NCBI GenBank assembly: GCA_030655955.1
Contig: JAUSOZ010000015.1
Coordinates: 1,669 to 65,668 of the forward strand
From: Deltaproteobacteria bacterium
GTDB taxonomy: Bacteria; Desulfobacterota; Desulfobaccia; Desulfobaccales; 0-14-0-80-60-11
Direction of reading: 5' to 3'
Length of the DNA: 64,000 bases
Below, in pieces: positions 805 to 28,624 of the stretch (the stretch's first letter is position 1; every line of letters starts with the position of its first letter). The translations under genes and the position numbers were made by a program. Below the pieces are notes generated by a model, which did not search any database, had not been told where the DNA came from, and saw only the letters and a list, made by a program, of their open reading frames with translations.

Positions 805-2448
805 ATGAACACATCCGAGAACTTCATTCGCTATTCTCTACGGAACCGGCTATTCGTCCTGGCCGGGGCCACGTTCTTTTTATGCGCTTTGGTCATCCTG
901 CTGTTCTTTCCCCTACTTAACCTCACCCTGGAAGGGCTCCAGAACCGTACCATCAATTCCATGCAAGCAGCCGCCGAAGTGGAGGCCACCACCATCTCCC
1001 GGCTCCTGGTCCTGGAATTTTCGTCGCTCAAGGGGTTGTTGAAGGTGACGCCGGCATCGAATACTGAGACAGATCAGTGGATCAAAGATCTCTTGTGGGA
1101 GAAGGTCACTTTCAATGAAATCATCGAAGGGGTTGAGCTGATCCAGGGGCAGAAAGACGCCGAGGGCCGGCACCTGACCTACCTGTTTTATCGCCGGGAG
1201 GCCCCGGAACTGAAGCCCATGCCCGGCCCCCAAAAAATCATGAAGTCGTTTCAAGGCCTGGAAAAGGACCTCATCAACAGCATCACAACGCAGCAGCGGG
1301 TGGACAACACCATCCAGGAATCCGTCAATCGGGGTCCTAAAGCAGAAGGGGAGATGCTGCTGCGCTACATGCCGGTGCACGTGCTGCTGGCGGATGAGGG
1401 GGCAGTCTTCTGGGGCGTGGCCAAAATCGGCATCGACACCAACCGGATGCGCCAACTGCTGCTCATTCAGAGCCAGGAGCAGACCAATATCCGCTGGAAC
1501 ATCTGGGTGGAAATGATTCTGAGCCTGTTTATCTCCGGGGTCCTGGCCATGAGCCTCATCTACTTCTGGGTGCGGCACATCACCGAGCCTTTAAGGACCC
1601 TCAGCATGGTGACCGGGGCTTTGCAGGGCGCCAAACCTGAAGATTTCGATCTTTGGCTGGAGAACCTGAAACGGGTCGATGCCCAGGGACAGGCCGAGGT
1701 GGTGGTGATCCAGAAGGTTCTGGAACGCCTGGGTACGGCCGTGCCCAAACTGGGGCAGCGGCTCATTGACGGGGAAGCCCGGGCCTGTCTCGGGAAGGTG
1801 ATAGCCCGTGGGCTTCCGGTCTTTCAGGCCCGGCAGGCTCAATTGCAGGCTCTGGAGCAGGAACTGGGCCACGGAGAGGCCACCGGGCCGGCCCACCAGA
1901 CCCTGACCTTGGTACGGGCCAGAATTGATATGGTTTTTGACGATCTCTCCCACCTCTGGTCTGACCCCAAAGACCAGTGGGATCGCATTGATGTCACCCC
2001 CGGGTTGCAGCGAGCCTGGCGTCTGGCGACCATAGGGCTGCCGGCGGAGGTAACGCAGCACCAGGAGTTTGCGCCTCTGCCGCCGGTCTGGGGGTCAGAG
2101 GCCAAGTTGACCCTGGCCGGGCTCTATCTCCTGGCTTTTGCCGTGGATCTGGTTCCGCCGGCCGGGGAATTAGGTATTAAGGTGGAGACCAGCCCGGCGG
2201 GAGGGGTCCGTCTGACCGTCTGGGTTTCCGGAAACCCGCGCTCGGATGCGGAGTGTCAGGGGTGGTTAAATCCGTTCGGCGATCCGGGCCGGATTCAGGG
2301 AAGCCTGGGGCCGGCCCTGGCCGCGGCCATCGCCTCCCAGCACCGCGGTAGTCTCACGGTGGCGCCCCGGGAGTCCGGCGGCGCGGTCTTCTCCCTGGAA
2401 TTACCCCCTTTAGCGGCCTCACAGGAACCTCATGAACCGGTTATTTAG
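805..2448 (+). CDS. HAMP-containing sensor histidine-kinase-like protein with degenerate ATP-binding boxes
   Basis: ATG at 805 directly abuts the upstream stop. Two TM segments bracket a ~190-aa periplasmic region. These are followed by a HAMP-like segment (ITEPLRTLSMVTGAL), a helix with a single His (DDLSHLWS) and a C-terminal GHKL-like fold ending SGGAVFSLELP. N/G1/G2 box positions read LLAFAVD / VSGNP / GSLGPAL. Confidence 0.6.
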   Translation: MNTSENFIRYSLRNRLFVLAGATFFLCALVILLFFPLLNLTLEGLQNRTINSMQAAAEVEATTISRLLVLEFSSLKGLLKVTPASNTETDQWIKDLLWEKVTFNEIIEGVELIQGQKDAEGRHLTYLFYRREAPELKPMPGPQKIMKSFQGLEKDLINSITTQQRVDNTIQESVNRGPKAEGEMLLRYMPVHVLLADEGAVFWGVAKIGIDTNRMRQLLLIQSQEQTNIRWNIWVEMILSLFISGVLAMSLIYFWVRHITEPLRTLSMVTGALQGAKPEDFDLWLENLKRVDAQGQAEVVVIQKVLERLGTAVPKLGQRLIDGEARACLGKVIARGLPVFQARQAQLQALEQELGHGEATGPAHQTLTLVRARIDMVFDDLSHLWSDPKDQWDRIDVTPGLQRAWRLATIGLPAEVTQHQEFAPLPPVWGSEAKLTLAGLYLLAFAVDLVPPAGELGIKVETSPAGGVRLTVWVSGNPRSDAECQGWLNPFGDPGRIQGSLGPALAAAIASQHRGSLTVAPRESGGAVFSLELPPLAASQEPHEPVI

Positions 2449-4138: not shown

Positions 4139-5203
4139 TTAAAGGACGGCGGTTCCGGCTATTTTGGCCGCGGTCTCGGCCCGCTTGGCCTTCCACATGG
4201 CGCCCAGGATGATCAAGGCGCCAAAGCCCAGGGCGCCGCACATGATGAGAAAGCTGGCAGTGCCCAGGATCGACAGAGTGCTGTCACTCATGGAGATGAG
4301 CTTCAATTCGGTGAGATATCTCGGCACGGCCAGGCCCCGGCTCACCGCCACGATGAGCATGATGCTGCCCATGACGACCTTGACCATGTGTTCTTTGACG
4401 TAGGTGGTGCCGATGGCCCCCAGTTGCACCCCAAAAAGGGACCCGGCCAGAATGATCAGGGTCAGGCGGATGTCTACCTGGCCGTGCATGGCCCACTTGA
4501 TGGTGCCGAAGAAACCCATGACGAAGGCGATGACCAGTTCCGTGGCCGAGGACACCAGGCCTCCGGCCCCCACCACATAGATCATACCGGGCACCCCAAT
4601 GAAGCCGCCTACCGCGATGGTGGCCGCCAGCATGCCGGTAGCGAAACCCACGGGGATGGTGAACCACATGGAGATGCGCACGTTGGCGGTCTTGAAGTGC
4701 ATCATGGGGGGCAGATTGATGGACTGCAGCCATAGGGCTAGGGCGCAAGTCTTTTCCTCACTGCCGGACTTGCCGGTCTTCATGGCGTCATAGAAGACAT
4801 AGCCGCCCACCACCACCAGGATGACCACGAAGGAGGCGCTGACATAGAGGTTGGAGCCGGACTGGCCCCATTTGGCCAGGATCATCTCCTGGATCTGGAT
4901 GCCCACCCACACCCCGATGCCGGCGGAGGCCGCCATGACCAGGCCCAGCTTAATGTCAACCTGGCCGTACTTCCAGCGCTTGTACGCCCCTACCATGGCC
5001 TTGGGGAACTTGTGGCACATGTTGCTGGCCACGGCCACGGTCCCGGGGACCCCCAGACTCATCATCCCCGGGGTCAGGACAAAGGCGCCGCCGGAGCCGA
5101 TGAAGCCGCTCACCAGGCCGCCGATGAATCCTACGACAAACAGAAAAAGTATGGACATTAAGGTTAAGTCGATAAAATTGACGCTGCTGGCGACATCCTG
5201 CAT
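4139..5203 (-). CDS. TauE/SafE-family anion exporter membrane protein
   Basis: Two internal repeats with GxxGGxxSGxxGxGGxxxxxP-like motifs (GFIGGLVSGFIGSGGAFVLTP; GMLAATIAVGGFIGVPGM), ~8 TM helices, and RBS GGGAGGAAG upstream of the ATG. Confidence 0.8.
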   Translation of the reverse strand: MQDVASSVNFIDLTLMSILFLFVVGFIGGLVSGFIGSGGAFVLTPGMMSLGVPGTVAVASNMCHKFPKAMVGAYKRWKYGQVDIKLGLVMAASAGIGVWVGIQIQEMILAKWGQSGSNLYVSASFVVILVVVGGYVFYDAMKTGKSGSEEKTCALALWLQSINLPPMMHFKTANVRISMWFTIPVGFATGMLAATIAVGGFIGVPGMIYVVGAGGLVSSATELVIAFVMGFFGTIKWAMHGQVDIRLTLIILAGSLFGVQLGAIGTTYVKEHMVKVVMGSIMLIVAVSRGLAVPRYLTELKLISMSDSTLSILGTASFLIMCGALGFGALIILGAMWKAKRAETAAKIAGTAVL

Positions 5204-5359
5204 TGAGGCTTCCTCCCTATGGTCAATCCCAGTTTTGCGGTGGTCTTGTGGTTATGAATTAAATCCTGAGCGGGGTTCCCGCCTCCCGCCCCCGGCCCCC
5301 CCGGGAGGGGAAGGGCTGGGGGCGGGAGTTGGAAATGTCTGGTCTCATCCGGGTATTAA

Positions 5360-6187
5360 TCAGGCATCCAGATGTAGCTGCGGGCGGGGACGCTTTCTCG
5401 GCGCCGGCCGCTTCGGGGCCACCCGAGGCTGCACCTTCTTGGCGGCTTCGATGCCCAGGAGCGACCACAGGTTAGAGGCAAAAGAGGCATGTACAAACGA
5501 GAAGGCGAACACCGTGACAATGGGCAACGCCGCAAAGATGCCGCCCTTGGTGAAATACTTCATGACGGTGGCTGAATTGGTAAACACTGCGGCATAGAGG
5601 GCCGCGGAAGCCAGCCCTAAACCAATGGTCCTGGTGATCAACTTCCCCCGGTTCGCCGTTTCATGATGTTCTTGAGCCATAACCTTTTCTCCTTGATATC
5701 CTGAGATGCTGAAGACGGGGAGAGGAATCTCCCCCGTGATTTCCTGGTCCTTGATGCCGGAATCGGTGATGACGAAGTCGATGCGCTTGACTTCGTGGTT
5801 CAGGTCCTTGATGGCCCCGGCCAAACCCTCAAATTTCACCACGTGCTCGCTCTTGATGCCCTGGCTGGCCAACTCGGAGGCCACCGGCACCCAGGCTTCT
5901 TGGGCCCGCTGGGTAAACTTTCCCCGCAGGTGTTGATTGTAGGGGGAAAAGAACTTGCCCGAAGTACTCAGGGCCGGATTGACGCTCATGGCGATAATGT
6001 CATACCCCAATCGCTGGGAGAGGTTAGCGGCATAATCGACCACCCCGTTACTGAAGGCGTAATCCTTGCCCACCACCAGGATTTTCCGCTTGACTTCCTG
6101 GCTGGGGTTGGAGGTGGTGCCAATGCTGCCGGAGCTTTCGTCCACTGCCTTCCTGCCTTTGCCTTTTTGGTCGCTAACATTCTTCAT
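5360..6187 (-). CDS. USP-like (adenine-nucleotide alpha-hydrolase fold) domain protein with C-terminal 2-TM anchor
   Basis: N-terminal KILVVGKDYAFSNGVVDYAANLSQRLGYDIIAMSV ... VKRIDFVITDSG resembles a USP/ETFP fold. The C-terminus has two hydrophobic helices. Start chosen at MKNVSD (6187), preceded by GAGGGGAAGG. The track ORF extends to 6274. Confidence 0.5.
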   Translation of the reverse strand: MKNVSDQKGKGRKAVDESSGSIGTTSNPSQEVKRKILVVGKDYAFSNGVVDYAANLSQRLGYDIIAMSVNPALSTSGKFFSPYNQHLRGKFTQRAQEAWVPVASELASQGIKSEHVVKFEGLAGAIKDLNHEVKRIDFVITDSGIKDQEITGEIPLPVFSISGYQGEKVMAQEHHETANRGKLITRTIGLGLASAALYAAVFTNSATVMKYFTKGGIFAALPIVTVFAFSFVHASFASNLWSLLGIEAAKKVQPRVAPKRPAPRKRPRPQLHLDA

Positions 6188-6350
6188 GGCTTTTGCCTTC
6201 CCCTCTGTTTCCTTCTGCCCACCTGGAAGCGGGGGGTTGATCTTGCCTTTATACCTATACAAGAACGGTGCCAAACTCGATGGCTTTTATATATAATTGA
6301 TTTTACTACAATATTATGATTTTCCCGGTTTATCCCCGGATATTCCCAGC

Positions 6351-6464
6351 ATTGCACTCTGCAACAGTTTTGAACCTTACAATGTATTTAATAATATTTT
6401 CAATATGTTGCATATTATTGCAACACTGGCGCCCAAAGATTGCAAAATGCAACACCAGGCGCCC
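6351..6464. promoter_or_regulatory. AT-rich divergent control region with repeated ATTGCA..TGCAACA boxes
   Basis: Three boxes: attgcactctgcaacag (6351-6367), gttgcatattattgcaacac (6407-6426) and attgcaaaatgcaacacc (6439-6456). The last two extend into a direct repeat TGCAACACYRGGCGCCCA (6418-6435 and 6447-6464, 29-bp period). Confidence 0.35.
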
Positions 6465-6594
6465 AGACCCGAAGTAGCTAATTTTTTCTGAGGAAAATCA
6501 AAAAATTAATCAATCTCGCCCGCCAGCAATGCATTGCTGTTAAAAGGATTTTTTTTTATACTGCTTTAGTTATGCGTCTTACCCAGAGAGGGTT

Positions 6595-8610
6595 ATGATT
6601 ATGGGTTTCTTTCGGAAGATGACTGAAGAAGAGCACCCCAAGCTGGCTCAGGAGCTGGTGGAACTGCGTGCCGCGGTGCAAAAAGCCCAACTGCCGGAGT
6701 CGGTGGCCGCCATTGCCGCCAAGGAGTTGGAGCGGCTGGACAAAACCGATGCCTCCGTGGCCGAGTACAGCATCGGCATCAACTACCTGGATTACCTGAT
6801 CTCCCTGCCCTGGAACCGCTTCACGGAAGATAACCTTGACCTCAAGAGGGCGGAGCGCATCCTGGAGTCCCAGCACTTTGGCCTCCATCATGTCAAAGAG
6901 CGCATCCTGGAGTTTCTGGCGGTCCGCACCCTGTGCAGTGTCCAGACCTCCCAGATCCTGGTGGTGGACGACGAGGAAATCGCCCGGACTAACCTGGAAT
7001 ATATCCTGAGAAAAGAAGGCCACCAGGTGACCACTGCGGCCAATGGCCTGGAAGCCCTGGAAAAGGTCAAGGCCCAGGAGTTCGACGTCGTTCTCACCGA
7101 TCTGAAGATGGAGAAGATGGACGGCATTCAGCTGCTGGAATCCGTCAAGCAGATCGCGCCCCATACTGAAATTGTCATGGTTACCGGTTACGCCACGGTG
7201 AGCTCCGCAGTCGACGCCCTGAAAAAGGGCGCGGCGCACTACTTATCCAAGCCCATCAAACTCGATGAGCTCAGGGCCACGGTGCGGGAAATCATCGACA
7301 AAAAGCGGCACGTGCAGATGAACCGAGGGCCCGTGCTGTGCTTCGCCGGGCCTCCCGGCACCGGCAAGACCTCCATCGGCCAGGCCATCGCCGAGGCCCT
7401 GGAACGCAAGTTCGTGCGCCTGTCCCTGGCAGGGCTTAGGGACGAGGCGGAGCTGCGGGGCCACCGCCGCACCTACGTGGGGGCCATGCCCGGGCGCATC
7501 ATCAACGAACTCAAGCGCCTGGAGGTCAAGAACCCCGTGTTCATGCTGGATGAAATCGACAAGATCGGCCAGGATTTTAGGGGCGACCCGGCCTCGGTGC
7601 TGCTGGAAATCCTGGATCCCCAGCAAAACTCTAAATTCGTCGACCACTACGTGGACGTGCCCTTTGACCTGTCCGGCGTCATGTTCATCACCACCGCCAA
7701 CGTGGTGGAGACCTTGCCCGCGCCCCTCCTGGACCGCCTGGAGGTCATCTATTTTCCCGGCTACACCGAGCAGGAAAAAATCCAGATCTCCCAGCACTTT
7801 CTCGTCCCCCGTCAACTCCGGGAACACGCCCTGGCGCACCTGGGAATCGAGTTTACCGATCCCGCGGTTGCCAAGGTCATCGGCGGCTACACCCGGGAGG
7901 CGGGTCTCCGCAACCTGGAGCGGGAAATTGCCATGGTCTGCCGCAAACTGGCCCGCATCTGCGTCCAGAGCAAGGGGACCTGCGCTCTCAGTATCGACGA
8001 AGAGTTGGTGGAGAAATTTCTCGGACCCCGAAAATTTACCCACGAAGTGGCGGAGGTCGGCAATCAGGTGGGGGTGACCACGGGTCTGGTCTGGACCGAA
8101 TTCGGCGGGGAAATCATCTTCGTGGAAGCCACTCGCATGCGGGGACACAAGCAGTTGATGCTCACCGGCTCCCTGGGCACCGTCTTGCAGGAATCAGCCC
8201 AGACCGCGCTGTCCTATATCCGCAGCCACGCCGAGGCCTTCGACCTGGACCCGGACTTCTTCACCGAGAGTGACATCCACATCCACCTGCCCTCCGGGGC
8301 CATCCCCAAAGAAGGGCCCTCCGCCGGGGTCACCATCGCCCTGGCCCTGCTCTCCTTGCTCACCGGACGGCCCGCCCGCCGGGACGTGGCCCTGACCGGC
8401 GAGCTGACCCTTTCCGGCCGCATCCTGCCGGTGAGCGGCATCAGAGAGAAGGTTCTGGCGGCCCAGCGGGCCGGGGTCAAGGTGGTGGTCTTCCCCAAAA
8501 AAAACGAAGTCGACATCGTCAACCTGGAAGATCAGGTCAAGGCGGGCTTGGAGATTGTCCTGGCCGAGGCCATTGAACCCCTGGTGGACCTGGTGCTGCT
8601 GCCTAAATGA
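6595..8610 (+). CDS. lon: Lon-family ATP-dependent protease lacking the LON N-domain and carrying an inserted response-regulator receiver domain
   Basis: aa 1-110 align to the Lon helical linker (LISLPWN, HFGLHHVKERILEFLAV). aa 121-236 form a complete REC domain (VVDDEE, LTD169LKM, MVTGY, LSKP). These are followed by Walker A GPPGTGKT, Walker B FMLDEIDK, and the protease Ser (PKEGPSAGVT) and Lys (GIREKVLAA). The ATG at 6601 has better RBS spacing (GAGAGGG) than 6595. Confidence 0.9.
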   Translation: MIMGFFRKMTEEEHPKLAQELVELRAAVQKAQLPESVAAIAAKELERLDKTDASVAEYSIGINYLDYLISLPWNRFTEDNLDLKRAERILESQHFGLHHVKERILEFLAVRTLCSVQTSQILVVDDEEIARTNLEYILRKEGHQVTTAANGLEALEKVKAQEFDVVLTDLKMEKMDGIQLLESVKQIAPHTEIVMVTGYATVSSAVDALKKGAAHYLSKPIKLDELRATVREIIDKKRHVQMNRGPVLCFAGPPGTGKTSIGQAIAEALERKFVRLSLAGLRDEAELRGHRRTYVGAMPGRIINELKRLEVKNPVFMLDEIDKIGQDFRGDPASVLLEILDPQQNSKFVDHYVDVPFDLSGVMFITTANVVETLPAPLLDRLEVIYFPGYTEQEKIQISQHFLVPRQLREHALAHLGIEFTDPAVAKVIGGYTREAGLRNLEREIAMVCRKLARICVQSKGTCALSIDEELVEKFLGPRKFTHEVAEVGNQVGVTTGLVWTEFGGEIIFVEATRMRGHKQLMLTGSLGTVLQESAQTALSYIRSHAEAFDLDPDFFTESDIHIHLPSGAIPKEGPSAGVTIALALLSLLTGRPARRDVALTGELTLSGRILPVSGIREKVLAAQRAGVKVVVFPKKNEVDIVNLEDQVKAGLEIVLAEAIEPLVDLVLLPK

Positions 8611-8698: not shown

Positions 8699-9217
8699 AT
8701 GATTCCCACTGGGCTTAAGACAAGGCTGAGCCTGAAGATCATGTTAGCGGTCCTCGGGGTGCTTGGTTTCCTGGTTCCCGAGGCTGCCCTGGCTACCACG
8801 CAGTTTTCGGACATCCTGTACCTTGATGGCCAGAAACATTCCCTGGATAGCCTCCCCCTGGAGACGTATTACGGCCCCGGGAATCCTCGTCCCAAGTTCC
8901 GGGCGCCCAACACCGCCACCTGGCGCGGCTACATCGCCACCTGGGAGATTGACCGGGGCGTCCTCCATTTAAAGGCCATCCGGGCCTGGACCGACCGCGG
9001 CGAGGTGGGGCTCCCGGAACTGTTTCCCGGCCGGAAAGGCCCGGTGGCCGCAACCTGGTTTACCGGCAAGCTCAAGGTCCCCCAGGGCAAGGTCATCAAA
9101 CCCGCGGTGCCCCATCCTATTTATGGGAAATACCTCATGATCACGGTGGAGAAGGGTAGGGTGGTCAACCAGGAGGTCATTGACAATCCCGGAGGCACTC
9201 GATCGCCGGGACGGTAA
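8699..9217 (+). CDS. Hypothetical secreted protein
   Basis: N-terminal signal-like segment LKIMLAVLGVLGFLVPEAALA and coding-like composition. No family recognised. Confidence 0.45.
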   Translation: MIPTGLKTRLSLKIMLAVLGVLGFLVPEAALATTQFSDILYLDGQKHSLDSLPLETYYGPGNPRPKFRAPNTATWRGYIATWEIDRGVLHLKAIRAWTDRGEVGLPELFPGRKGPVAATWFTGKLKVPQGKVIKPAVPHPIYGKYLMITVEKGRVVNQEVIDNPGGTRSPGR

Positions 9218-10029: not shown

Positions 10030-12063
10030 ATGGATTTCCGCTCGGTTCTCACCACGTGTCCTTACTGCGCCGTAGGCTGCAACCTCCTCTTACAGGTGTT
10101 GGATGGGCAGATCATCGGCACCCTGCCGGCGAAAACCGGACCGTCCAACCAAGGCAGCCTCTGTATCAAAGGCTGGAATGTGCATGAATTTATCCAGCAT
10201 AAGGACCGCCTGACCAAACCCCTCATTCGCCAGGGCGGTTCTCTTAAGGAAACCACCTGGGATGACGCCCTGGATTATGCCGCCTCCCAGTTGACGAGTC
10301 TCAAGGACCAGTATGGTCCGGAGAGCGTCGTCTTCGCGGGCTCGGCCCGCTGCACCAATGAAGAAACCTATATCTTTCAAAAATTTGCCCGCGCCGTGTT
10401 CGGTCATAACCACATCGATCACTGCGCCCGTCTCTGACACGCTCCGACGGTGGCCGGGCTGGCCGCCGCCTTTGGCAGTGGGGCGATGACCAATTCCTTT
10501 GCCGAATTGGAAAAGGCCAATTGTATTTTCGCCATCGGCACGAACACTACGGTGGCTCACCCCATTGCTTCCATGCGCCTCATGCGGGCCAAGGCCAATG
10601 GGGCCAAGCTGATTGTGGTCGACCCCCGGAGGACCCAGATCGCCTCCCTGGCCCATCTGCATATACAGCACCGCCTGGGAACCGACGTGGCCCTGATCAA
10701 CGGCATCATGCATATCATCTATAAGAATGGCTGGCACAACCAGGCTTTTATAGAGGCGCGGACGGAGAATTTCCCGGCCCTGATGGAGATGATCGATAAA
10801 TTCCCCCCGGAGCGGGTCTCCGAGATCACTGGAGTGCCGGTGGCCCAACTCCAACAGGCGGCGGAATGGTACTCCCAGGCCGAGGCCAGCGCCATCTGCT
10901 ACGTCTTGGGCATCACGCAGCATTCCACCGGCACCGACAACGTCAAGAGCCTGGCCAACCTGGCCATGATTTGCGGCCATATCGGCCGGCCCTCCACCGG
11001 GGTCAATCCCATCCGGGGACAGAATAACGTCCAGGGGGCCTGTGACATGGGCTGCCTGCCCAATGTCTTTCCCGGCTACCAGTATATTACCGTCCCGGAG
11101 AACCTGGAGAAGTTTGCCAAGGCCTGGAACGCCAAGTTATCGCCCACCCCCGGCCTCACCATGTTCGAGCAGATCGATGCGATTCTGGAAGGGAAAGTTA
11201 AAGGGCTGGTGGTCTTTGGAGCCAATCCGGTGACGAGCTACCCCGATGTCAACCGGGTGGAAAAGGCTATGAAAGCCCTGGAGTTCTTGCTGGTCATGGA
11301 CATCTTCCCCACCCCAACCACGGAGTTTGCCCACGTGGTACTCCCCGCGACCTCGTTTGCGGAGTCGGACGGCACCTTCTCCAGCTCCGAGCGCCGGGTG
11401 CAGCGGGTGCGGCCCGCCATCGACCCCATCCCGGGAAAGACCAACTGGGAAGCCATCCAGGAACTCTCCACCCGCATGGGGTATCCCATGAATTTCACCT
11501 CGGGAGAGGACATCTTCAACGAAATGGCCTCCCTGACCCCGGCCTTCGGGGGCATGACTTTTGAGCGCCTCAATGAGAAGGGCCTTTGCTGGCCCTGTCC
11601 CACCCCGGACCATCCCGGCACCCAATATTTGCATAAAGACAGGTTCGCCCGGGGCTTGGGGGCCTTTCAGTCCATCGACTACCGGCCGCCGGCCGAGGCC
11701 CCGGACGCCGAGTATCCCCTGTGGCTGACCACCGGCACCCTCTTCACCCATTATCTCACCGGCACCATGACCCGGCGGTGTCCCTCTCTGCATCATGAAA
11801 ATCCGGTGGTGGAAGTGGAAATCCATCCTGAAGACGCCCACCGCCTGCACATCCAGCCGGGGGAGGAGGTTAAGGCCACCAGCCGCCGGGGCAGCATCAT
11901 GGTCAAGGCCTTGGTAACCGAGCGGGTCAAGCCCGGGGTGGTGTTCATCCCGCTGCATTTCGCCGAAAACGCCGCCAACCGGCTCACCAATGCGGCCTTG
12001 GATCCTATTACCAAGACCCCGGAATACAAGGTGTGCGCGGTCAGCTTGGACAAAGTGGCATAA
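10030..12063 (+). CDS. fdhA: Formate dehydrogenase catalytic (molybdo/tungstopterin) subunit, selenocysteine-containing, FdhF/FdhA type
   Basis: The track ORFs 10030..10437 and 10450..12063 are in the same frame and are separated only by TGA at 10435-10437, which sits in the active-site motif [26 protein letters not shown]. There is an N-terminal 4Fe-4S motif (CPYCAVGC..C), no Tat signal, and molybdopterin oxidoreductase motifs throughout. Confidence 0.92.
10446..10470 (+). other. Putative bacterial SECIS hairpin
   Basis: GACGGUGGCC-GGGCU-GGCCGCCGCC forms a 10-bp stem (one A.C mismatch, one G.U pair) and starts 11 nt after the UGA. The apical loop falls ~22-26 nt from the U of UGA. Confidence 0.5.
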
Positions 12064-20435: not shown

Positions 20436-23006
20436 CTATCCGGCGGCGGCTTCTTGGGGGCGGAGGCATTTGAGGCCGTAGTCTCCGGTTTTGAAGGCGT
20501 TGAGGATGCGCTCCATGACGGCGTCGGAGGTCAGGGCCAGGTCGAGCTGGCGGCAGAAGGCGATGAGGAGTCCGGCCAGTTCCAGGGTCTGTTCGGTTTC
20601 CAGGAGGGAGAGCTTGACCAGGCGGCCCTGAACCAGGTCGCCTTTGGTCTGGGCCTTGAAGCCCAGGTCGTCCAGGATCCGTTTGACCAGGCGGGCCCGG
20701 CGCTCCCGGCGGTCGATGTTGGCGGCGCCGCCCTTGAATTGGAAGCTGATGTAGTTGTCGTTTTTCTCCTCCGAGATGAAGGCGTCGACGATGCCGAAGT
20801 GGTAGCCGATGCGGGAGTTGAAATTGAGGTAGGACTCGGTGACGATGGCGAAGCTCTTGCCCCCCAGGCCGCGCTCGGACTTGGCGGTGTCGTACATGGT
20901 GTTGGCAAAGACCGAGATGAAGCCCTTGAGGTCCGGGGCCACCTGGCCGGCCCAGACCACCCCGGGGTGGTGGAAGCCCCGGAGCAGGGCCTTGAAGGGG
21001 CGGCTTAAGATGTCGGCCTCGGTGACCTGCTCGGCGCCGGTTTCCCTAAGGCCGCCCCCCAGGTCGAGGATGAACAGATTGAGGGGCAGGTCGGTTTTGA
21101 GGCGGCTGACGTGATGGGATGCCAAGGCCTTCTCCATGTCCGGGATAAACATGGCGTCCATGGCCTTTTCGTGACAGAACCGGGTGATGTCGTGGAGGGT
21201 GCGGCAGTTAACCGCCTTAAACTCCGGGCTCTCGGGGTCGAGGAGGTTCAGGCGGGAGACGGATTTCAAGATGCGGCGCAATTTGAGGAAGACCGGGTCA
21301 CTGCGCCAGGCTTCATCCGGTTTCACCTGGCGGGCCAGCAACTCGTGCATGATGCCGGGATAGATGAGGGCGGCGTCGGCGTCGACGGTGACTATCTGGC
21401 CGGGGGTGAGGGTCTTGGTGGCGCCGCCCACCTCCACCAGGGTGGGAATGCGGAACTCCCGGGCCAGGATGCTCATGTGGCCGGTGGGACTGCCCACTTC
21501 GGTGATGATGGCGGCAATGCGGTCCATGACCAGCACCAGGCGGGCTGAGGGCTGGCGGCCCACCACCACGGCGCCGGGCGGAATGCGGCTGACATCTTCA
21601 TCGTGGAGGAAGAGGTGGACCCGGCCGGCGGCCACGCCCCCCACCGCCCGGATGCCGTGGTGGAGGATGGGCGCCACCATGGGTTCGGGGACGGGGGGCC
21701 GCTCCTCGGCGGCAAAGGCCGGGGCGCTGATCCTCAGGGGCCGGGATTGGAGGATGATGAGGTTGCCCGCCTCGCCCACGGTCCACTCGATATCCTGGGG
21801 GTGGCCGAAGTGGTCCTCCAATTGCAGGGCAATTTCGGCCAGGGTCCGGACCTGGTCGTCGGTGAGGCAGGGGGCCTGGGCCTGTTCCGGGGCCAGGGAA
21901 ATTTCTTCCACTCCCCCAGCCGGGCCACAGGTGAGGGCGACGGGTTTTTCGGCTACCCGGCGCTGGGTGATGGAGTGGGGGGCCTGCCGGCTCACCTGAA
22001 AGAGGTCCGGGGACACGGTGCCGTCCACGGCGTACTGGCCCAGGCCCCACACCGCCGAAATCATCACGGTGTCGTCCTGGGGGGCCTGGGGGTCCAGGGA
22101 GAACATGACGCCGCTGGCCCGGGCCGGGACCATGGCCAGGACGCCCACGGCCATGGGGAGCGAGTTGACGGAAAACTGTTGGTATTTCCAGTAGAAGATG
22201 GCGCGAGAGGTAAACTTGCTGGCCACGATCTCCTTGTAGTGACCGGGTAAGGATGCGGCGTCGACGTTCAAGAGGGTGGCGAACTGGCCGGCAAAAGAGA
22301 ATTCGGTGTCCTCGCCCACGGCGCTGGAGCGCACCGCCAGCCAGTGGGTGGGCAGGTCTTGGCCCGCCTGGACGATGGCTGCTTCCAGGTCCGGGGGCAG
22401 GGGGGCCCGGCGCACCATGGCCTGCAACTCCTGGCTGATGACCCTGAGGCTGTCCAGGTCTTCGATGTTGGCCTGGGAGAGTTTGTCGTAAAGGTCGGCG
22501 GCCAGGCTGGAGGATTCCAGGAAGCGTTTGTAGGCCGCGGCGGTAATGGAAAAGCCCTGGGGCACCGGCAGGCCGACGCGGTTGCCGATCTCGCCGAGGT
22601 TGGCCATCTTGCCGCCCACCGCCGGGGCCAGTTCCCGGTGCAGAGCCGATAGGGGCAGGATGAACGGGGTATCGGGGATGGTGGGGACCGCTTCCAACTC
22701 CGCCAGCATCTCGTCCTGCAGACGCCTACAGATGGGGACCAGGTCGGATTGATAGCGGTTGTTGGTCAGGAGGTTGAGGGCGTTTACCATACCGGAGACC
22801 TGTTCGCCCAGGGCATTCACCTGTGAAGAGATATAGCTGGAGTCAAAGACGAAATCGCCGGAGAGTTTTTCCTCCATGTCCGCCATGGTGTCCAGGGCCT
22901 GGTTGTTGTTGTCGAGCAGGCGCCGGAAATGGACAAATTTCTCCTGCAAACGGACCTGTTCGGTCGGTTCGGGGTCTTTGAGAAAGCGCCGCAGGAATTT
23001 TAGCAT
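20436..23006 (-). CDS. Dikinase-like protein P1: N-terminal helical region + PPDK-N ATP-grasp + phosphohistidine swivel domain + unrecognised ~300-aa C-terminal domain
   Basis: GGKMANLGEIGNRVGLPVPQGF, VRSSAVGEDTEFSFAGQ and PQDIEWTV..LIILQSRP indicate a PPDK-N / PEP-synthase nucleotide domain. GSPTGHMSILAREFRIPTLV is the swivel His. The C-terminal domain carries NCRTLHDITRF, LDLGGG, RIGYHF, NDNYISFQFKGGAA and RRERRARL. No PEP-utilizer TIM-barrel motifs are seen. Confidence 0.85.
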   Translation of the reverse strand: MLKFLRRFLKDPEPTEQVRLQEKFVHFRRLLDNNNQALDTMADMEEKLSGDFVFDSSYISSQVNALGEQVSGMVNALNLLTNNRYQSDLVPICRRLQDEMLAELEAVPTIPDTPFILPLSALHRELAPAVGGKMANLGEIGNRVGLPVPQGFSITAAAYKRFLESSSLAADLYDKLSQANIEDLDSLRVISQELQAMVRRAPLPPDLEAAIVQAGQDLPTHWLAVRSSAVGEDTEFSFAGQFATLLNVDAASLPGHYKEIVASKFTSRAIFYWKYQQFSVNSLPMAVGVLAMVPARASGVMFSLDPQAPQDDTVMISAVWGLGQYAVDGTVSPDLFQVSRQAPHSITQRRVAEKPVALTCGPAGGVEEISLAPEQAQAPCLTDDQVRTLAEIALQLEDHFGHPQDIEWTVGEAGNLIILQSRPLRISAPAFAAEERPPVPEPMVAPILHHGIRAVGGVAAGRVHLFLHDEDVSRIPPGAVVVGRQPSARLVLVMDRIAAIITEVGSPTGHMSILAREFRIPTLVEVGGATKTLTPGQIVTVDADAALIYPGIMHELLARQVKPDEAWRSDPVFLKLRRILKSVSRLNLLDPESPEFKAVNCRTLHDITRFCHEKAMDAMFIPDMEKALASHHVSRLKTDLPLNLFILDLGGGLRETGAEQVTEADILSRPFKALLRGFHHPGVVWAGQVAPDLKGFISVFANTMYDTAKSERGLGGKSFAIVTESYLNFNSRIGYHFGIVDAFISEEKNDNYISFQFKGGAANIDRRERRARLVKRILDDLGFKAQTKGDLVQGRLVKLSLLETEQTLELAGLLIAFCRQLDLALTSDAVMERILNAFKTGDYGLKCLRPQEAAAG

Positions 23007-23007
23007 A

Positions 23008-23055
23008 GTAGTCAGTGGTCAGTGGTCAGTAGCCAGTAGTCAGTTGTCAGTTGTC
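23008..23055. repeat. Tandem heptanucleotide array (GTCAGTG/GTCAGTA/GCCAGTA/GTCAGTT), abutting the P1 start codon
   Basis: gtcagtg gtcagtg gtcagta gccagta gtcagtt gtcagtt gtc. It begins 1-4 nt from the ATG (23006-23004, minus strand). It is the inverted complement of the array at 23116-23148. Confidence 0.85.
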
Positions 23056-23115
23056 TGGGGTTAGATAGAGGGCGTGCCGGGTGCCCCGGATTTGGCGGCC
23101 ACCAGGCCGCTCCAT

Positions 23116-23148
23116 AACTGACCACTGGCAACTGGCAACTGACTACTG
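23116..23148. repeat. Tandem heptanucleotide array (AACTGAC/CACTGGC/AACTGGC), overlapping the response-regulator stop codon
   Basis: aactgac cactggc aactggc aactgac tactg is the reverse complement of CAGTNGT-type units. It can pair with 23008-23055 across a ~60-nt spacer. Confidence 0.85.
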
Positions 23149-23547
23149 TTTTTTCAAGGCGGCCAGTTCCCCTTGCATGCGCTTCCACTCCAGGGCCCGC
23201 TTGATGGTGATGAGGATGGTCTCCTTGCGGAAGGGCTTGGTGATAAAATCGTAGGCGCCTTTCTGGATGGCCTCTTCGGCGGTCTCAATGGTGCCGTAGG
23301 CGGTAATGACAATAATGGGCATGGTAACGTCGATATTCTTGACGATGCCGATGAGGTCGATGCCATCCACCAGGGGCATTTTGAGATCGGTGACCACTAA
23401 GTCGTAATGACTATCCTGGAGCAATTTGCTCACTTCCAGGGGATTGTTGGTCGTGGTAACCTCATAGCCGGTCTTATCCATCAGGATAGTTTTCAGCAAT
23501 CTGAGCATATTGGGTTCATCGTCAACGACCAGTATCCGCTCCGGCAT
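23143..23547 (-). CDS. Single-domain (CheY-like) response regulator
   Basis: ILVVDDEP, LVVTDLKMP, VITAYG and DFITKPF. At 134 aa there is no output domain. Confidence 0.9.
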   Translation of the reverse strand: MPERILVVDDEPNMLRLLKTILMDKTGYEVTTTNNPLEVSKLLQDSHYDLVVTDLKMPLVDGIDLIGIVKNIDVTMPIIVITAYGTIETAEEAIQKGAYDFITKPFRKETILITIKRALEWKRMQGELAALKKQ

Positions 23548-23574
23548 CTTATCCTCCTGTCCTGAAAAGTTCCC

Positions 23575-23602
23575 GTAGGGGCGGTTCGCGAACCGCCCCT
23601 AC
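23575..23602. repeat. Family-B hairpin GTAGGGGCGGttcgcgaaCCGCCCCTAC between the kinase and regulator genes
   Basis: Perfect 10-bp stem located in the 63-bp gap between the HK stop (23611) and the RR start (23547). Confidence 0.7.
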
Positions 23603-23610
23603 AACTCTCT

Positions 23611-25932
23611 TTACGAGATAACTGCGGTTTGATTCGGCGGGGCCTGTTCCAGGCCGTTCGCCTCGGCCTCGGGGCCGGAAATAATGGGGAGGTAAACGGT
23701 AAACGTGGTGCCATGCTTTCCGGGATATTCATCGGCGGGGTAACTGGTGAAGATGATGTTCCCGCCGAATTTGGTGATAATGCCGTAGCTCATGGACAGG
23801 CCCAGGCCGGTGCCTTTGCCGGTCTCCTTGGTGGTGAAGAAGGGGTCGAAGATCTTGGCCTGGGCCTCCCGGGGGATGCCGGCGCCGGTGTCGATAAATT
23901 CGATGGCGACGCGTTTGCCGTCGGGGCTGAGCGCGGTAAGGACCTTGAGGATCCCGCCCCCCGCCATGGCGTCGGCGGCATTGTTGACCAGATTGATGAA
24001 GACCTGCTGCAGTTCCGGGGGGTCACCCTTGACCCGGGGGAGGCCCGGGGCCAGGCTGGTTTCCAGGCGGATCTTTTTGGTCAGCAGGGTGTTCTTCACC
24101 ACGGCCAGGGTTTTTTCCAGGAGGCCGGAAACCTCGGCGCTGGTTTCGCTCACCTGGGGGATGCGGGCGAAGGTGAGGATGTTTTCGACGATTTTTTTGC
24201 ACCGGAGCCCTTCGTCCTCGATGACCTGGAGGGTTTCGTGGATCTCGGGCATGGACTCGGTCTGCTCCAGGAGGTGCTCGGTGAATCCCAGGATCACGGT
24301 CATGGGATTATTGATCTCATGGGCCACCCCCGCGGCCAGGGTGCCGATGGAGGCGAGCTTCTCCATGTTGATCATCCGGTCTTCAATGGCTTTGCGGCCG
24401 GTGATGTTCCGGGAAATGATCTCGTAGGCAAAGGTATCGCCGTGTTCATCTTTGATGCCCACGATGCTGGTGGAAAACCAGAATTCCTGGTCGCCGATGG
24501 ACACCGGGTGGCGCTTGCTTCTGACCCTGTTCGTCTCCTTGACTTCCCGGAGCCATTCCATGTGGAAGTCGGCGGATTTTTGATTGAAGATGTCGTTCAA
24601 GGTGCGCCCGACAAACTCCTGGGATGTCCCCTGGATGACGCCGCCGGTGGTTGCGGGCTTTACCGAGGATCGGGCGGTGGCGAAGAGGTTGGCGGCGTAG
24701 CGGTTGATGGACAGGACACGGCCGTCGGCGTCCACGGAGTAGATCAGGTCGGCGGCGTTTTCCACCAGGCCCTGATACCGGGCCTCTGATTTCTGCAACT
24801 TCTCCTTCTGGCGGTTGACCTCTTCTTCCAGGCTGGAAGAAAACTGCTGCTCGTAGCGGAAATTCAGCATGACGATGGTGCCGGACAGGACCACCAGGCC
24901 GATGATGACCTGGAGGTAGAACTGCCGGGTATAGAGGGTATGGATCACGCCTTCGACTTCGCTGGCCGGGGCCACCACCGCCACTGACCAGGAGGTGGCC
25001 GGTTTAGTCTCCTGGACCAGGTTTTGTTCTTCCAACTGTACCGGGGCATAGGCCATGAGCTTTTGAATCTCTCCCGCCATGCCGCGATGCCAGCCGGAGA
25101 TATAAGTGCCCCAGCCTTCTTTGCCGGCCAGCATTTTTTCGCGCTGAATCTGGTTGATGGCGTCGAAGGAGATGGCGGGCATCCGTTCTTTGCGCACCGT
25201 AAAGGCGTTCTTGCCGATGAAGTCGCGTTCCGGATGACTGAGAAATATGCCCTTGCTATCCATGATCCAGGCATAACCGGTTTTGCCGCTCTGAATACCC
25301 TGGGTAAACTTTTTGGCCAGGGCATGGGCATCGATATAAAACACCAGCACCCCGCTGAAAGCCCCGGAGGGGTGGGGATGGGTTTCGTCCACCGACATCT
25401 CATAGGTGGGCACGGCCATGACGAAGATGAGCCGGCCGACGTAATGGGGAATCTCGGTGGACACCGGCATCACCAGGACCTGGCCCTTGTGTTCCGGTTG
25501 GGCGGCCCAGGAGAGGAACGAGGTGTCCTTGAAGGAGCCGGTGGTGATCTGATCCACCCCCCGGGAGTCCATCTGAAAAGCCCGGTTGCCGTCGGCACTG
25601 ATACGCAGGATCTCCACCACGCCTTCTTCCCGGACGGAAGCCAGGGTGGCCCGCATGCGGTTGGCCCAGGACAGGGGCTCCAGGTATTGGATGGAAGGGG
25701 AGAAGTTGAGGGTGCTCAGTTCCCGTTTGAGGAAGTTGATATCCTGCTCCAGCAGGCTGGCGGTATATTTGGCCAGCACCAACTGCTGCTGGTTGAAGTC
25801 TTCCTTGACGATCTCCTTCATCTGGTTGGCGGACATGAGGCCCAGATAGATGCTGATCCCCAGCAGGGCGAAATTGACCGCCAACAATAAAGCCAGGGCG
25901 TAGCGGGAGGCGAGAAACGGGAAGCGGCGCAT
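23611..25932 (-). CDS. Sensor histidine kinase with periplasmic Cache-like domain, PAS, HisKA, HATPase
   Basis: TM1 (ALALLLAVNFALLGISIYLGL), a ~300-aa extracytoplasmic region with Cache-like features (GYAWIMDSKGIFLSHP) and TM2. These are followed by a PAS domain (YQGLVENAADLIYSVDADGRV), H-box AAGVAHEINNP, N-box LVNNAADAM, and G-boxes DTGAGI / GTGLGLS. Confidence 0.9.
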   Translation of the reverse strand: MRRFPFLASRYALALLLAVNFALLGISIYLGLMSANQMKEIVKEDFNQQQLVLAKYTASLLEQDINFLKRELSTLNFSPSIQYLEPLSWANRMRATLASVREEGVVEILRISADGNRAFQMDSRGVDQITTGSFKDTSFLSWAAQPEHKGQVLVMPVSTEIPHYVGRLIFVMAVPTYEMSVDETHPHPSGAFSGVLVFYIDAHALAKKFTQGIQSGKTGYAWIMDSKGIFLSHPERDFIGKNAFTVRKERMPAISFDAINQIQREKMLAGKEGWGTYISGWHRGMAGEIQKLMAYAPVQLEEQNLVQETKPATSWSVAVVAPASEVEGVIHTLYTRQFYLQVIIGLVVLSGTIVMLNFRYEQQFSSSLEEEVNRQKEKLQKSEARYQGLVENAADLIYSVDADGRVLSINRYAANLFATARSSVKPATTGGVIQGTSQEFVGRTLNDIFNQKSADFHMEWLREVKETNRVRSKRHPVSIGDQEFWFSTSIVGIKDEHGDTFAYEIISRNITGRKAIEDRMINMEKLASIGTLAAGVAHEINNPMTVILGFTEHLLEQTESMPEIHETLQVIEDEGLRCKKIVENILTFARIPQVSETSAEVSGLLEKTLAVVKNTLLTKKIRLETSLAPGLPRVKGDPPELQQVFINLVNNAADAMAGGGILKVLTALSPDGKRVAIEFIDTGAGIPREAQAKIFDPFFTTKETGKGTGLGLSMSYGIITKFGGNIIFTSYPADEYPGKHGTTFTVYLPIISGPEAEANGLEQAPPNQTAVIS

Positions 25933-25939
25933 AATTTTT

Positions 25940-28489
25940 CTATTTACCCACGTGTTCCTGCACGAAGTCCTTAATATACCATTCTACAATACTATCCGAA
26001 AACAGCACCATGTCCAGTTGTTTGGTGTAATGCGTGAGTTTACCCAGCAGGGTGAGCCGCTGGGCCATCTGCTCGGCGGGGTATTTGGCGAGACGGGCCT
26101 CGATGAGCTCGCCTTTGCGCCGGTGATTCAGGTGGAGGTGGTCGATGATGGCCTCGATGAGGCGGGCGCGGCGCTCCCGGCGCTCCGGGGTGGAGCCGCC
26201 GCCCCGGAACCCGAAGGTGAGGTAGTTGTCGTTCACCTGGTCCGAGACGTAGGCCTCCACCGTGGAGAGATGATACCCCAGGCGGATGCTGAAATTCATG
26301 TAATTTTTGGCGAGCACGACATAACTCTGGTCCCGCCAGGGGTCGGCGCCCTGGGCCACCTCGGCCTCGCCCTTGACAAAGACCGAGGACAGGCTCTTGA
26401 CCCCGGCGGGTGCAGCCTGGGCCCAGCGCATGGCGGTGAGGCCCTTCCAGAAGGCCTGGAAGGGGAGGGAGTCCACCTGTTCGGGTTTGACCTTGCGGCC
26501 CCAGCCCCTTTTCAGCACGCCGCCCAGATCCAGGATTCTGACCTTGATGGGCAGCCCGGAATCCAGGTCCACGACCTCGCCGGCGGTGTCGATTTCATTT
26601 TCCGCCAGGCGGAACATTTCCCGCATGGAATATTCGTGGGCGTAGCGCACGATGTCATGGATGGTGCGGCAGTGAGACGGTGAGAACGTGGCGTCATCTT
26701 CGGGATTGATCAGGTTCAAGGGGACGATCTTTTGCACCACATTCTTTAAGGTTTGAAACACCGGGCTGTCAGCCAGGTCATTTTTTTTATGCCGCAGTTC
26801 CAGGAGTTCCGGGATCAGGCCGGCGTAGACGTTATTATAGTTGGCGTCCACGGTGACCACTTGTCCGGGTTGCAGGATTTGGGTGGCGTTGCCGGTATTG
26901 AGAATGGTGGGGACCTGGAATTCCCGGGCCAGGAGGGCCATGTGGCCGGTGGGGCTGCCGGCGTCGGTAAGGATGGCGGCGGTCTGGGGCATGACGGTGA
27001 CATATTTGGTTGAGGTGTGGCGGGCCACCAGGACGCTGCCGGCGGGGAAGTTCTTCAGATCCGCATCCCGGCGCACCAGGAACACCGGACCGGCCCCGAC
27101 GCCGCGGCAGGCTACGGTGCCGTGGTCAATGAGCACGGCATGCTCCTTCAGGGTCCGGGCCGGCGGCTCCGGGGTCTTGGGGGGCGGGAGCTGCAGCGGC
27201 CGGCTCTGGAGGAGCCAGAGGGCCCCGGTTTCATCCAGGGCCCACTCCACGTCCTGGGGTTTGGCGAAATGGGCCTCCAGGGTGGCGGCCCAGTGCACCA
27301 GTTGGGTAATCTGGCCCTGGTCCAGGCAGGGGGCGCTGACCAGCTCCGGCGGCACCGGCACCTCGGCTTCGCCGCCCTGGGGCCGGCAGACCAGCATGAC
27401 CTCCTTGGGGGGAATCGTTTGGGCCAGGACCTGGCCCGGCGGCTGGTAGGCCACCAGGTAGTGATCCGGGTTGATGACGCCGCCTACGGCGTATCTGCCC
27501 AAGCCCCAGACGGCGTTGATGAAGGCAGCCTCCTGGCCGGCGTCATCGGGCTGGCGGGTGAAGAGCACCCCGCTGGCCCGGGCCTGGATCATGGGCATCA
27601 CCACCACGCCCATGGCCATCTCTTCTTCCTTGAACCCCTTGTTCTTGTAGTAAAACAGGGCGCGAGGAGTGAACAGGCTGGCGACGATATCCTTATAGCG
27701 GCTGCTGAGGGATTCGGGGGCCACGTTGAGATAGGTGGCGTACTGGCCGGCGAAGGTCAGGGTGAGGTCCTCGCCCACGGCGGAAGAGCGCATGGCCACC
27801 CGGGGCCGGCGGGGCTCCCGGGCCGCCAGGCGCTCGTAGGCCTCGGTGATGGCCGCCTCCAGTTCCGGGGGTACTTGGGCCGCGAGGATCATCTGCTTTA
27901 AGTCCTCGCTGACCCGGGCCAGGCTGTCCAGATCATCCAGGCGCCAGTGCCCCAGCAATTCCGTCAGCCGGGCCGCCAGGTGATTGTGATCCAGGAAAAC
28001 CTTGTAGGCGTGGGTGGAAATGGCAAAGCCGGCGGGGACCGGCAGGCCCACGCGGTTTTTGACCTCCCCCAGATTGGCGTTTTTGCCCCCCACCACGTCA
28101 CCCATGGTGGCGTTGATGGCCTCGAAGTCAATCACCAGGGGGGCTACGGGGATCTCGCGGCGGTGGGTCAGGACTGCCTCCACCTCCCGGCTGATGCGGG
28201 CCAGGGCCTCGGACAGCCCTTGATAGCGGTTGCCCCCCAAGCCATTGAGGGCATCGACCAACTTGGCCGTTTCCTGGTGGAGTTGACTGACCGCGGCGCG
28301 GATGTATTGGAGGTCAAACAGGTAGTCGCCCGACAGCTTCTCTTCCATGTCGGCCATCAGGGTCAGGACCTGGTTGTTGGCGGAGAGCAAGGCCTGAAAG
28401 TGGGTGTATTTTTCCGCCAGCTCCGCCTGGGTTTTACCCGGCGTGGCCTTGGTAAGACGTTGCCAGGCGCGTTTCAGGGTGGTCACCAT
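25940..28489 (-). CDS. Dikinase-like protein P2 (paralog of P1/P3)
   Basis: Same architecture: GGKNANLGEVKNRVGLPVPAGF, MRSSAVGEDLTLTFAGQ, PQDVEWAL..LWLLQSRP and swivel GSPTGHMALLAREFQVPTIL. The C-terminal domain has HCRTIHDIVRY, LDLGG, RLGYHL, NDNYLTFGFRGGGS and RRERRARL. The stop lies 7 nt before the HK start. ATG at 28489 (after GGGGAG) is preferred over the TTG at 28507. Confidence 0.85.
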   Translation of the reverse strand: MVTTLKRAWQRLTKATPGKTQAELAEKYTHFQALLSANNQVLTLMADMEEKLSGDYLFDLQYIRAAVSQLHQETAKLVDALNGLGGNRYQGLSEALARISREVEAVLTHRREIPVAPLVIDFEAINATMGDVVGGKNANLGEVKNRVGLPVPAGFAISTHAYKVFLDHNHLAARLTELLGHWRLDDLDSLARVSEDLKQMILAAQVPPELEAAITEAYERLAAREPRRPRVAMRSSAVGEDLTLTFAGQYATYLNVAPESLSSRYKDIVASLFTPRALFYYKNKGFKEEEMAMGVVVMPMIQARASGVLFTRQPDDAGQEAAFINAVWGLGRYAVGGVINPDHYLVAYQPPGQVLAQTIPPKEVMLVCRPQGGEAEVPVPPELVSAPCLDQGQITQLVHWAATLEAHFAKPQDVEWALDETGALWLLQSRPLQLPPPKTPEPPARTLKEHAVLIDHGTVACRGVGAGPVFLVRRDADLKNFPAGSVLVARHTSTKYVTVMPQTAAILTDAGSPTGHMALLAREFQVPTILNTGNATQILQPGQVVTVDANYNNVYAGLIPELLELRHKKNDLADSPVFQTLKNVVQKIVPLNLINPEDDATFSPSHCRTIHDIVRYAHEYSMREMFRLAENEIDTAGEVVDLDSGLPIKVRILDLGGVLKRGWGRKVKPEQVDSLPFQAFWKGLTAMRWAQAAPAGVKSLSSVFVKGEAEVAQGADPWRDQSYVVLAKNYMNFSIRLGYHLSTVEAYVSDQVNDNYLTFGFRGGGSTPERRERRARLIEAIIDHLHLNHRRKGELIEARLAKYPAEQMAQRLTLLGKLTHYTKQLDMVLFSDSIVEWYIKDFVQEHVGK

Positions 28490-28624
28490 CGCTCCCCATT
28501 GCCGCAAATATAGACAGGACTGCCATTGGCATCAAACAATCAAAAATTATATCAAATTTTAGCTCAATTGCCAGTCCGCTCCGGCTGGCGCCCGGGCGTA
28601 TTTTGGGGCAAGGAACGGGGAGAG

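Follow-up and report, generated by a model that had tools for sequence, protein, structure and literature searches.

In Desulfovibrio (Nitratidesulfovibrio) vulgaris Hildenborough, DVU3303 is the closest described counterpart of the protein discussed here. This response regulator, which includes a Lon protease, was noted in 2011 by Rajeev et al. and forms a three-component system with the kinase DVU3304 and the σ54 regulator DVU3305 (PMC3333781). The regulator DVU3305 binds between DVU3301 and DVU3303 and controls DVU3302-3298, whose products are a membrane protein, a UspA protein and hypothetical proteins (PMC3333781). A σ54 promoter is present on DVU3302-3298, and none on DVU3303-3305 (PMC4641369). 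The three genes of the system display pairwise cofitness above 0.9 and are all detrimental in chlorate, and one of the targets of the system is DVU3299, a putative anion transporter (Trotter et al. 2023, PMC10102598). The TIGR name of DVU3303 is "ATP-dependent protease La, truncation". The gene considered below lies at 6595-8610 (+) of a 64,000-nucleotide stretch of DNA (the window) from a Deltaproteobacteria bacterium of the Desulfobaccales (contig JAUSOZ010000015.1). It encodes a protein of this kind, termed REC-Lon, in which a CheY-like receiver (REC) domain is inserted between the helical bundle and the AAA+ module of a LonA-type protease.

The window gene belongs to an already noticed, genetically supported and biochemically unexplored family, with DVU3303 as its prototype. 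The novelty of the architecture implied by the original prediction, made from the sequence alone, was overstated, since it had been described for DVU3303 in 2011 (PMC3333781). Both proteins combine a receiver and a Lon protease in one polypeptide with a truncated N-domain (by description in the case of DVU3303). Both loci possess a divergent operon with a membrane or anion-transporter gene and Usp or hypothetical proteins, and, in the intergenic region between it and the protease gene, regulator sites of the GTTGC-N5-GCAAC type. In D. vulgaris the σ54 promoter is found only on the divergent operon, and a candidate element suggests the same for the window. Unlike DVU3303, the window copy has neither a kinase nor a σ54 regulator adjoining it. 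The Desulfovibrionaceae members of the family, a set that does not include DVU3303 itself, share 55-58% identity with the window protein and show the order Lon, histidine kinase (HK), enhancer-binding protein (EBP).

Domain architecture, predicted structure and family

The open reading frame (ORF) at 6595-8610 (+) runs without interruption from the first ATG to a TGA stop at 8608-8610 and encodes a LonA-type protease of 671 amino acids (aa); database copies begin at the second methionine (ATG 6601) and are 669 aa long. Pfam assigns Response_reg (PF00072) to aa 121-230 (E 9.6e-32, 109.9 bits vs a cutoff of 30.2), AAA (PF00004) to aa 248-387 (E 1e-23), Lon_lid to aa 410-460 (E 1.7e-17) and Lon_C (PF05362) to aa 467-668 (E 2.5e-78). 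No Pfam match was obtained for PF02190 (LON_substr_bdg), the LON/PUA substrate-binding N-domain. This is the domain order that the original prediction had proposed to look for. TIGR00763, "endopeptidase La", is matched with 710.3 bits (cutoff 608.05) in two stretches split by the receiver, and the E. coli-type model NF008053 remains under its cutoff (562 vs 891).

In alignments to solved LonA structures, aa 21-114 correspond to residues 10-103 of B. subtilis Lon (3m6a) and 249-344 of T. thermophilus Lon (7p6u), and aa 244-667 to residues 107-529 and 352-777, respectively. The receiver therefore takes the place of a connector of ~3-7 residues. Everything N-terminal of LonA residue ~250 is gone, only 20 residues preceding the aligned segment, in line with the missing LON/PUA domain claimed beforehand. 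Canonical LonA proteases (E. coli, B. subtilis, Thermus, Meiothermus; TIGR00763, MEROPS S16) exhibit the same order of helical bundle, AAA+, lid and Ser-Lys protease and are ~50-55% identical to REC-Lon over the AAA+/protease part. In contrast to them, REC-Lon has neither the LON/PUA N-domain nor most of the long coiled-coil helix, and it harbors a 134-residue insert containing the receiver where they have the short connector. These 134 residues are counted between RILEFLAV (aa 103-110) and the Walker A segment GPVLCFAGPPGTGKTS (aa 245-260); the insert had been located correctly, but its length had been given as 135 aa.

The protein starts with a tail (aa 1-20; 6595-6654, +) that is predicted to be disordered and carries a family-conserved M-x-F-F-[RK]-K motif. 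The retained LonA helical bundle follows (aa 21-114; 6655-6936, +); it has five helices, represents the section of the LonA N-region packing on the ATPase, and ends in ..RILEFLAVRTLC. The CheY-like receiver (aa 121-243; 6955-7323, +) presents the acidic pair D125/D126, the phospho-acceptor D169 (VVLTDLKM; nucleotides 7099-7101), T197 (MVTGY), Y199 and K219 (LSKP), the acidic pair, D169, T197 and K219 being exactly where they had been placed, and continues through a long α5 into the AAA+ module. The latter (aa 245-460; 7327-7974, +) contains Walker A GPPGTGKTS with K258, the pore-loop Tyr Y294, Walker B D319/E320 and the Lon lid (aa 410-460). The Lon S16 protease domain (aa 467-668; 7993-8598, +) provides the catalytic dyad Ser576 (nucleotides 8320-8322) and Lys619 (nucleotides 8449-8451). 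As predicted, the Walker motifs and the Ser-Lys dyad are thus intact.

An AlphaFold2 model of the monomer, built from 40 diverse members of the family (669-aa numbering), reaches a mean predicted local distance difference test (pLDDT) score of 82 and a predicted TM-score (pTM) of 0.74. Five N-terminal helices are modelled, the last one spanning residues 96-114, and strand β1 of the receiver (118-122) begins three residues further on. The (βα)5 fold of the receiver ends with the long α5 (221-241), and the first AAA+ strand (245-249) again starts three residues on. The pLDDT is ~75-91 in the receiver and below 50 for residues 1-13 of the tail, and the prediction is confident across both junctions. 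With connectors of ~3 residues on both sides, the receiver is therefore modelled as a rigid in-line insertion and not as a domain on flexible linkers. Foldseek aligns the model with N-truncated LonA chains, with target-normalised TM-scores of 0.88 (3m6a_A) and 0.85 (6on2_D, 4ypl_F), and its matches include no solved Lon with a receiver. A complete CheY-like receiver at the linker/AAA+ junction is hence borne out by profiles, alignment and model alike.

The first homologue search yielded more than 120 clusters (at ≥85% identity; NCBI, ENA, JGI and Logan assemblies) with an identical Pfam set and lengths of 669-671 aa. When only the junction (from the last part of the helical bundle through the receiver to Walker A) was used as query against one genome per species, at least 53 species-representative loci matched it as a whole. 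The hosts among the matches listed belong to the Desulfobaccales/Syntrophobacterales, Desulfomonilales, Desulfobulbales, Desulfobacterales, Desulfovibrionales and Nitrospirota/Thermodesulfovibrionales, with one Acidobacteriota metagenome-assembled genome. A further search found REC-Lon in the cultured Halodesulfovibrio aestuarii and Desulfocurvibacter africanus, where it is annotated as "S16 family serine protease", "response regulator" or "endopeptidase La". The 48 full-length copies compared, from 48 species, mostly have 666-683 aa, the few longer ones being uncorrected start calls or having an insertion. D125, D126, D169, K219, P220, the Walker A Lys, the Walker B Asp-Glu and Lys619 are invariant in all 48, and T197 and Ser576 are each found in 47. 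The aromatic switch residue of the receiver is conserved in 47-48 of the 48 species, and the pore-loop Tyr is invariant across the family. The short N-terminus devoid of a LON/PUA domain is also common to all 48. The M-x-F-F-[RK]-K start (6595-6618 in the window), followed by a variable acidic stretch, is present in nearly all members (L001-L067) and may function as a degron, as a pseudo-substrate or as a peptide that binds a partner.

In a tree of the AAA+/protease part, 34 REC-Lon tips and two canonical sequences fall in one clade within LonA, so that REC-Lons appear nearly monophyletic. Two other searches were less informative on the extent of the family. The search of the whole library of representatives was flooded by canonical LonAs, displayed the REC-Lon pattern only in P0121 and four fragments, and gives no family size; a profile search with 34 diverse REC-Lons returned matches almost all from an over-sampled Desulfobaccales clade. 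Long multi-stretch matches (P0122-P0130) were considered as Lons with several receivers and rejected, Pfam identifying them as tandem-AAA+ Lons without a receiver. P0122, P0123 and P0126-P0130 (889-1379 aa) possess two or three tandem AAA+/Lon-lid modules followed by a single Lon protease domain, and P0125 has two Lon_C stretches.

Gene neighbourhood and regulatory sites

Orthologues of the σ54 regulator (49-92% identity) and the kinase are found within 10 kb of REC-Lon in ~42 of the 53 loci listed. In L001-L003 (86-90% identical), divergent Usp, TauE and hypothetical genes are followed by REC-Lon, by a σ54 response regulator with a HAMP-HisKA kinase, and by TauE-Alph_Pro_TM-Usp. The exact DVU3303-3304-3305 order (Lon-HK-EBP) occurs in L035, L037, L040 and L043-45, Desulfovibrionaceae and Nitrospirota among them. 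On the other side, a TauE orthologue (62-89% identity) is divergently located upstream of REC-Lon in ~40 of the 53 loci; in the window, this TauE/SafE-family anion exporter is encoded at 4139-5203 (-) (PF01925, E 3.5e-36). Between the two lies a conserved family-less protein at 5360-6190 (-), of ~276 aa when read from ATG 6190, the ORF reaching back to TTG 6274. It has no Pfam, NCBIfam or PADLOC match, harbors hydrophobic C-terminal segments, and is encoded between TauE and REC-Lon in ~25 of the 53 loci. The protein may serve the protease as a substrate, an adaptor or a membrane anchor.

The statement that no cognate kinase is adjacent is correct for the window, where none of the genes in 64 kb is orthologous to it; such a kinase nevertheless exists in the family and adjoins REC-Lon in most relatives. 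L004, the species representative closest to the window (87% nucleotide identity), is syntenic with it over exactly 4155-8607, up to the Lon stop codon. A 98%-identical copy in an independent assembly from a different sample is likewise kinase-less on the downstream side, and the layout is therefore genuine: the window lineage has lost adjacency to the kinase pair. Directly 3' of REC-Lon, where relatives have the σ54 regulator and the kinase, a 172-aa ORF (8699-9217, +) shows a hydrophobic N-terminus and no family match.

Two genes of the window were considered as partners and rejected: the product of 805-2448 (+) and a dCache-PAS kinase (23611-25932) are ~30% identical or not significantly similar to the cognate kinase of the family. 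The former, already described as degenerate in the original prediction, lacks HisKA, and its one match, to HATPase_c, falls below the threshold. It is a membrane protein devoid of an H-box, encoded between a solute-binding-protein fragment and MlaE/ABC-like genes, and looks like a degenerate kinase unrelated to REC-Lon. Assignment to a defence-system Lon (BrxL and others) was also rejected: PADLOC matches are partial and weak (BrxL, 41.7 bits, in the protease domain), and the neighbours have none.

The published DVU3305 site is GTTGC-N4/5-GCAAC. Exactly two TTGC-N5-GCAA palindromes are present in the window, both in the REC-Lon/TauE intergenic region: TTGCACTCTGCAA at 6352-6364 and TTGCAAAATGCAA at 6440-6452, 88 bp apart. 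Both are predicted, by motif match, to be enhancer-binding-protein sites of the DVU3305 type (upstream activating sequences, UAS 1 and UAS 2). Many loci, belonging to different orders, likewise have a pair of palindromes upstream of REC-Lon with a spacing of 86-91 bp, and palindrome density is 1.96/kb in the 500 bp upstream of REC-Lon vs 0.041/kb elsewhere in the loci, a ~48-fold enrichment. A candidate σ54-like -24/-12 element, TGGCAC-CGTTC-TTGTA, lies at 6258-6273 (-), ~85 bp downstream of UAS 1, the nearer palindrome, and faces the hypothetical/TauE operon; it is also present in L004, and similar elements occur in other loci. Candidate σ54 promoters of the divergent operon repeatedly have TTGT for TTGC at -12 (the window, L004, L014, L035, L040 and L067). 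A strict σ54 scan (GG/GC fixed, at least 9/11) returned an oddly placed minus-strand match at ~6434, which was set aside. The REC-Lon strand yielded no σ54-type promoter, in agreement with D. vulgaris (PMC4641369). The window locus looks like the target of a DVU3305-type activator encoded elsewhere, as judged from these motifs.

A proposed phosphorylation-controlled protease and its alternatives

Taken as a whole, the best explanation is that REC-Lon probably forms the proteolytic arm of a branched two-component pathway and would be switched when D169 becomes phosphorylated. This LonA-derived family has lost the substrate-binding N-domain of ~230 residues and gained the receiver between the last helix of the bundle and the first AAA+ strand. 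One HAMP histidine kinase would phosphorylate both the σ54-dependent activator and REC-Lon. The activator would turn on the divergent operon, with its TauE anion exporter and Usp or hypothetical membrane proteins. Phosphorylated D169 would alter the hold of the receiver on the ATPase, probably by governing how the ring assembles or is activated, in the manner of the NtrC-family REC-AAA+ proteins, so that a specific substrate would undergo ATP-dependent proteolysis only when the signal is present. With the N-domain gone, substrate recognition would have to use another surface or a partner, and in the window lineage the kinase/activator pair would have to act from elsewhere in the genome. That aspartyl phosphorylation switches the protease, as originally predicted, is an inference, and it is strengthened because the residues of the phospho-chemistry are conserved in 48 species, because an orthologous histidine kinase and σ54 regulator adjoin the gene in most relatives, and because the D. 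vulgaris trio shows cofitness above 0.9 (PMC10102598).

The relationship between the two receivers of the pathway is consistent with a shared kinase. The best matches of the REC-Lon receiver are in the NtrC family (NtrC1 structures 4l4u and 1ny5, AtoC and ZraR models). Like REC-Lon, NtrC-family EBPs (NtrC1, DctD, NtrC, ZraR, AtoC) have a receiver directly N-terminal to the AAA+ module via an extended α5, and in these REC-AAA+ proteins phosphorylation controls ring assembly. Only this REC-to-AAA+ topology is held in common, since Pfam and a motif scan found no PF00158, HTH_8 or GAFTGA in REC-Lon, whose Lon-type AAA+ module powers proteolysis, whereas that of the NtrC family drives transcription. 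Receiver and AAA+ module of the partner activator can be aligned collinearly with those of REC-Lon (33% identity, 289 aa). The Lon and cognate EBP receivers are ~45% identical to each other, as compared with 40% (Lon) and 37% (cognate EBP) to non-cognate EBP receivers. The two are, in these comparisons, mutually closest relatives, pointing to an origin of one from the other. In a permutation test on 38 dereplicated loci, same-locus receiver pairs were compared with cross-locus pairs. The same-locus excess in similarity is +5.4 points over α1 together with β5 and its loop, and +2.0 elsewhere (both p<5e-5). The former are the receiver surfaces that dock on the kinase, and their larger excess fits co-evolution of both receivers with one kinase.

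RssB and CpdR provide a functional parallel, as aspartyl phosphorylation of their receivers controls substrate degradation by ClpXP. The NCBIfam models of both match the REC-Lon receiver segment. They are separate adaptors acting in trans on ClpXP, whereas the REC-Lon receiver is covalently part of the protease subunit. A bolder extension of the phospho-switch is offered tentatively, with somewhat less than even confidence: REC-Lon may be the first AAA+ protease with response-regulator subunits, six receivers being positioned at the trimer-of-dimers crown of the N-domains. Their phospho-dimerisation, a property taken over through domain duplication from the partner activator of the NtrC type, would control access to the pore or assembly of the hexamer, and a single kinase would trigger transcription of the operon and destruction of a specific protein together.

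Several points weigh against a D169-controlled protease or limit its reach. The -12 of the σ54-like element is non-canonical, with GT for GC. No orthologous kinase or σ54 regulator is found anywhere in the 64-kb window; in this lineage the partner is unobserved, and a different kinase could be involved. The same-locus excess in receiver similarity is small and part of it may reflect shared genome composition, and the structural model, being that of a monomer, is silent on the hexamer. Orthology to DVU3303 is based on the description in the paper, the "protease La, truncation" annotation, gene order and the binding motif, D. vulgaris Hildenborough not being among the matches of a homologue search seeded with a Desulfovibrionaceae member. 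Finally, the literature searched gave no biochemical test (phosphotransfer, oligomeric state or proteolysis) for any REC-Lon, and no structural study of a receiver-Lon protein turned up in it.

Among the alternatives, the receiver might be a recruitment module that heterodimerises with the phosphorylated σ54 activator and feeds it to the protease, establishing negative feedback. Receivers commonly dimerise via α4-β5-α5, the Lon and cognate EBP receivers are each other's closest relatives, at ~45% identity, and some surface must replace the substrate recognition of the lost N-domain. A protease destroying the activator should however give a phenotype opposite to that of activator loss, and the D. 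vulgaris mutants of Lon-regulator, kinase and activator are alike in their fitness pattern (cofitness above 0.9; PMC10102598). The invariant phospho-acceptor chemistry would also be superfluous for passive docking, and recruitment is considered unlikely. Alternatively, the receiver could be atypical, independent of phosphorylation, and serve as a structural substitute for the N-domain that aids hexamer assembly. Such receivers exist and the window copy has no kinase nearby, but they usually lose some of the residues (acidic pair, D169, T197, aromatic switch, K219, P220) that 47-48 of the 48 species retain here, and a kinase adjoins REC-Lon in most relatives; this reading is very unlikely.

Less probable still is that the receiver acts as a phosphate sink or competitor tuning phosphorylation of the σ54 activator, the protease being a constitutive, truncated housekeeping Lon. 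Branched pathways with sink receivers are known, and one kinase is accompanied by two receivers in most loci listed. A sink would not, however, need a rigid in-frame insertion at one conserved point of an AAA+ protease with catalytic residues intact over many orders, and its removal should raise signalling instead of mimicking loss of the kinase (PMC10102598). That the fusion stems from misassembly or a frameshift, or that the gene is a decaying pseudogene, can be regarded as refuted: some representatives (P0160, P0191, P0211) are frameshifted at their C-termini, but no support was found for the gene itself, whose GC content is continuous and which shows neither a frameshift nor an assembly join, the same uninterrupted architecture with conserved catalytic residues recurs in more than 120 independent assembly clusters and in complete genomes, and the structure prediction is confident across both junctions.

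Other genes of the window and significance of the family

Apart from the REC-Lon locus, the window contains a molybdopterin formate-dehydrogenase-like gene (10030-12063, +) split by an in-frame TGA at 10435-10437 (..HCARL*HAPTVAGL..). This TGA is probably a selenocysteine codon and not a real stop, because it stands at the selenocysteine position of FdhF-type enzymes. Three paralogous PPDK_N/PEP-utilizer proteins of ~855 aa each (20436-28507, -; 34381-36963, +) flank the dCache-PAS histidine kinase mentioned above and a single-domain receiver (23143-23547), and the same genes recur beside the REC-Lon module in L001, L003 and L084. A second TauE exporter (345 aa) with an adjoining Usp protein (147 aa) is encoded at 32200-33658 (-). 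This TauE is ~30-36% identical to both TauE proteins of L001, the second of which is encoded beside the kinase pair.

To our knowledge, two-component control of proteolysis has so far been found only via the separate adaptors RssB and CpdR acting on ClpXP. If the phospho-switch is true, a receiver within the protease subunit, at the point where the N-domain of LonA meets the ATPase ring, would constitute a direct and experimentally tractable AAA+ phospho-switch. The discovery of the architecture itself is not new, and it is the mechanism that would be of interest to the fields of AAA+ proteases and two-component signalling. The family is found widely among sulfate reducers and related anaerobes; genetic phenotypes are known for it from a model organism, and cultured hosts are available (D. 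vulgaris, Halodesulfovibrio aestuarii, Desulfocurvibacter africanus). To this family the window adds a locus in which the protease and its target operon are separable from the kinase pair, with the predicted regulator-binding sites kept.

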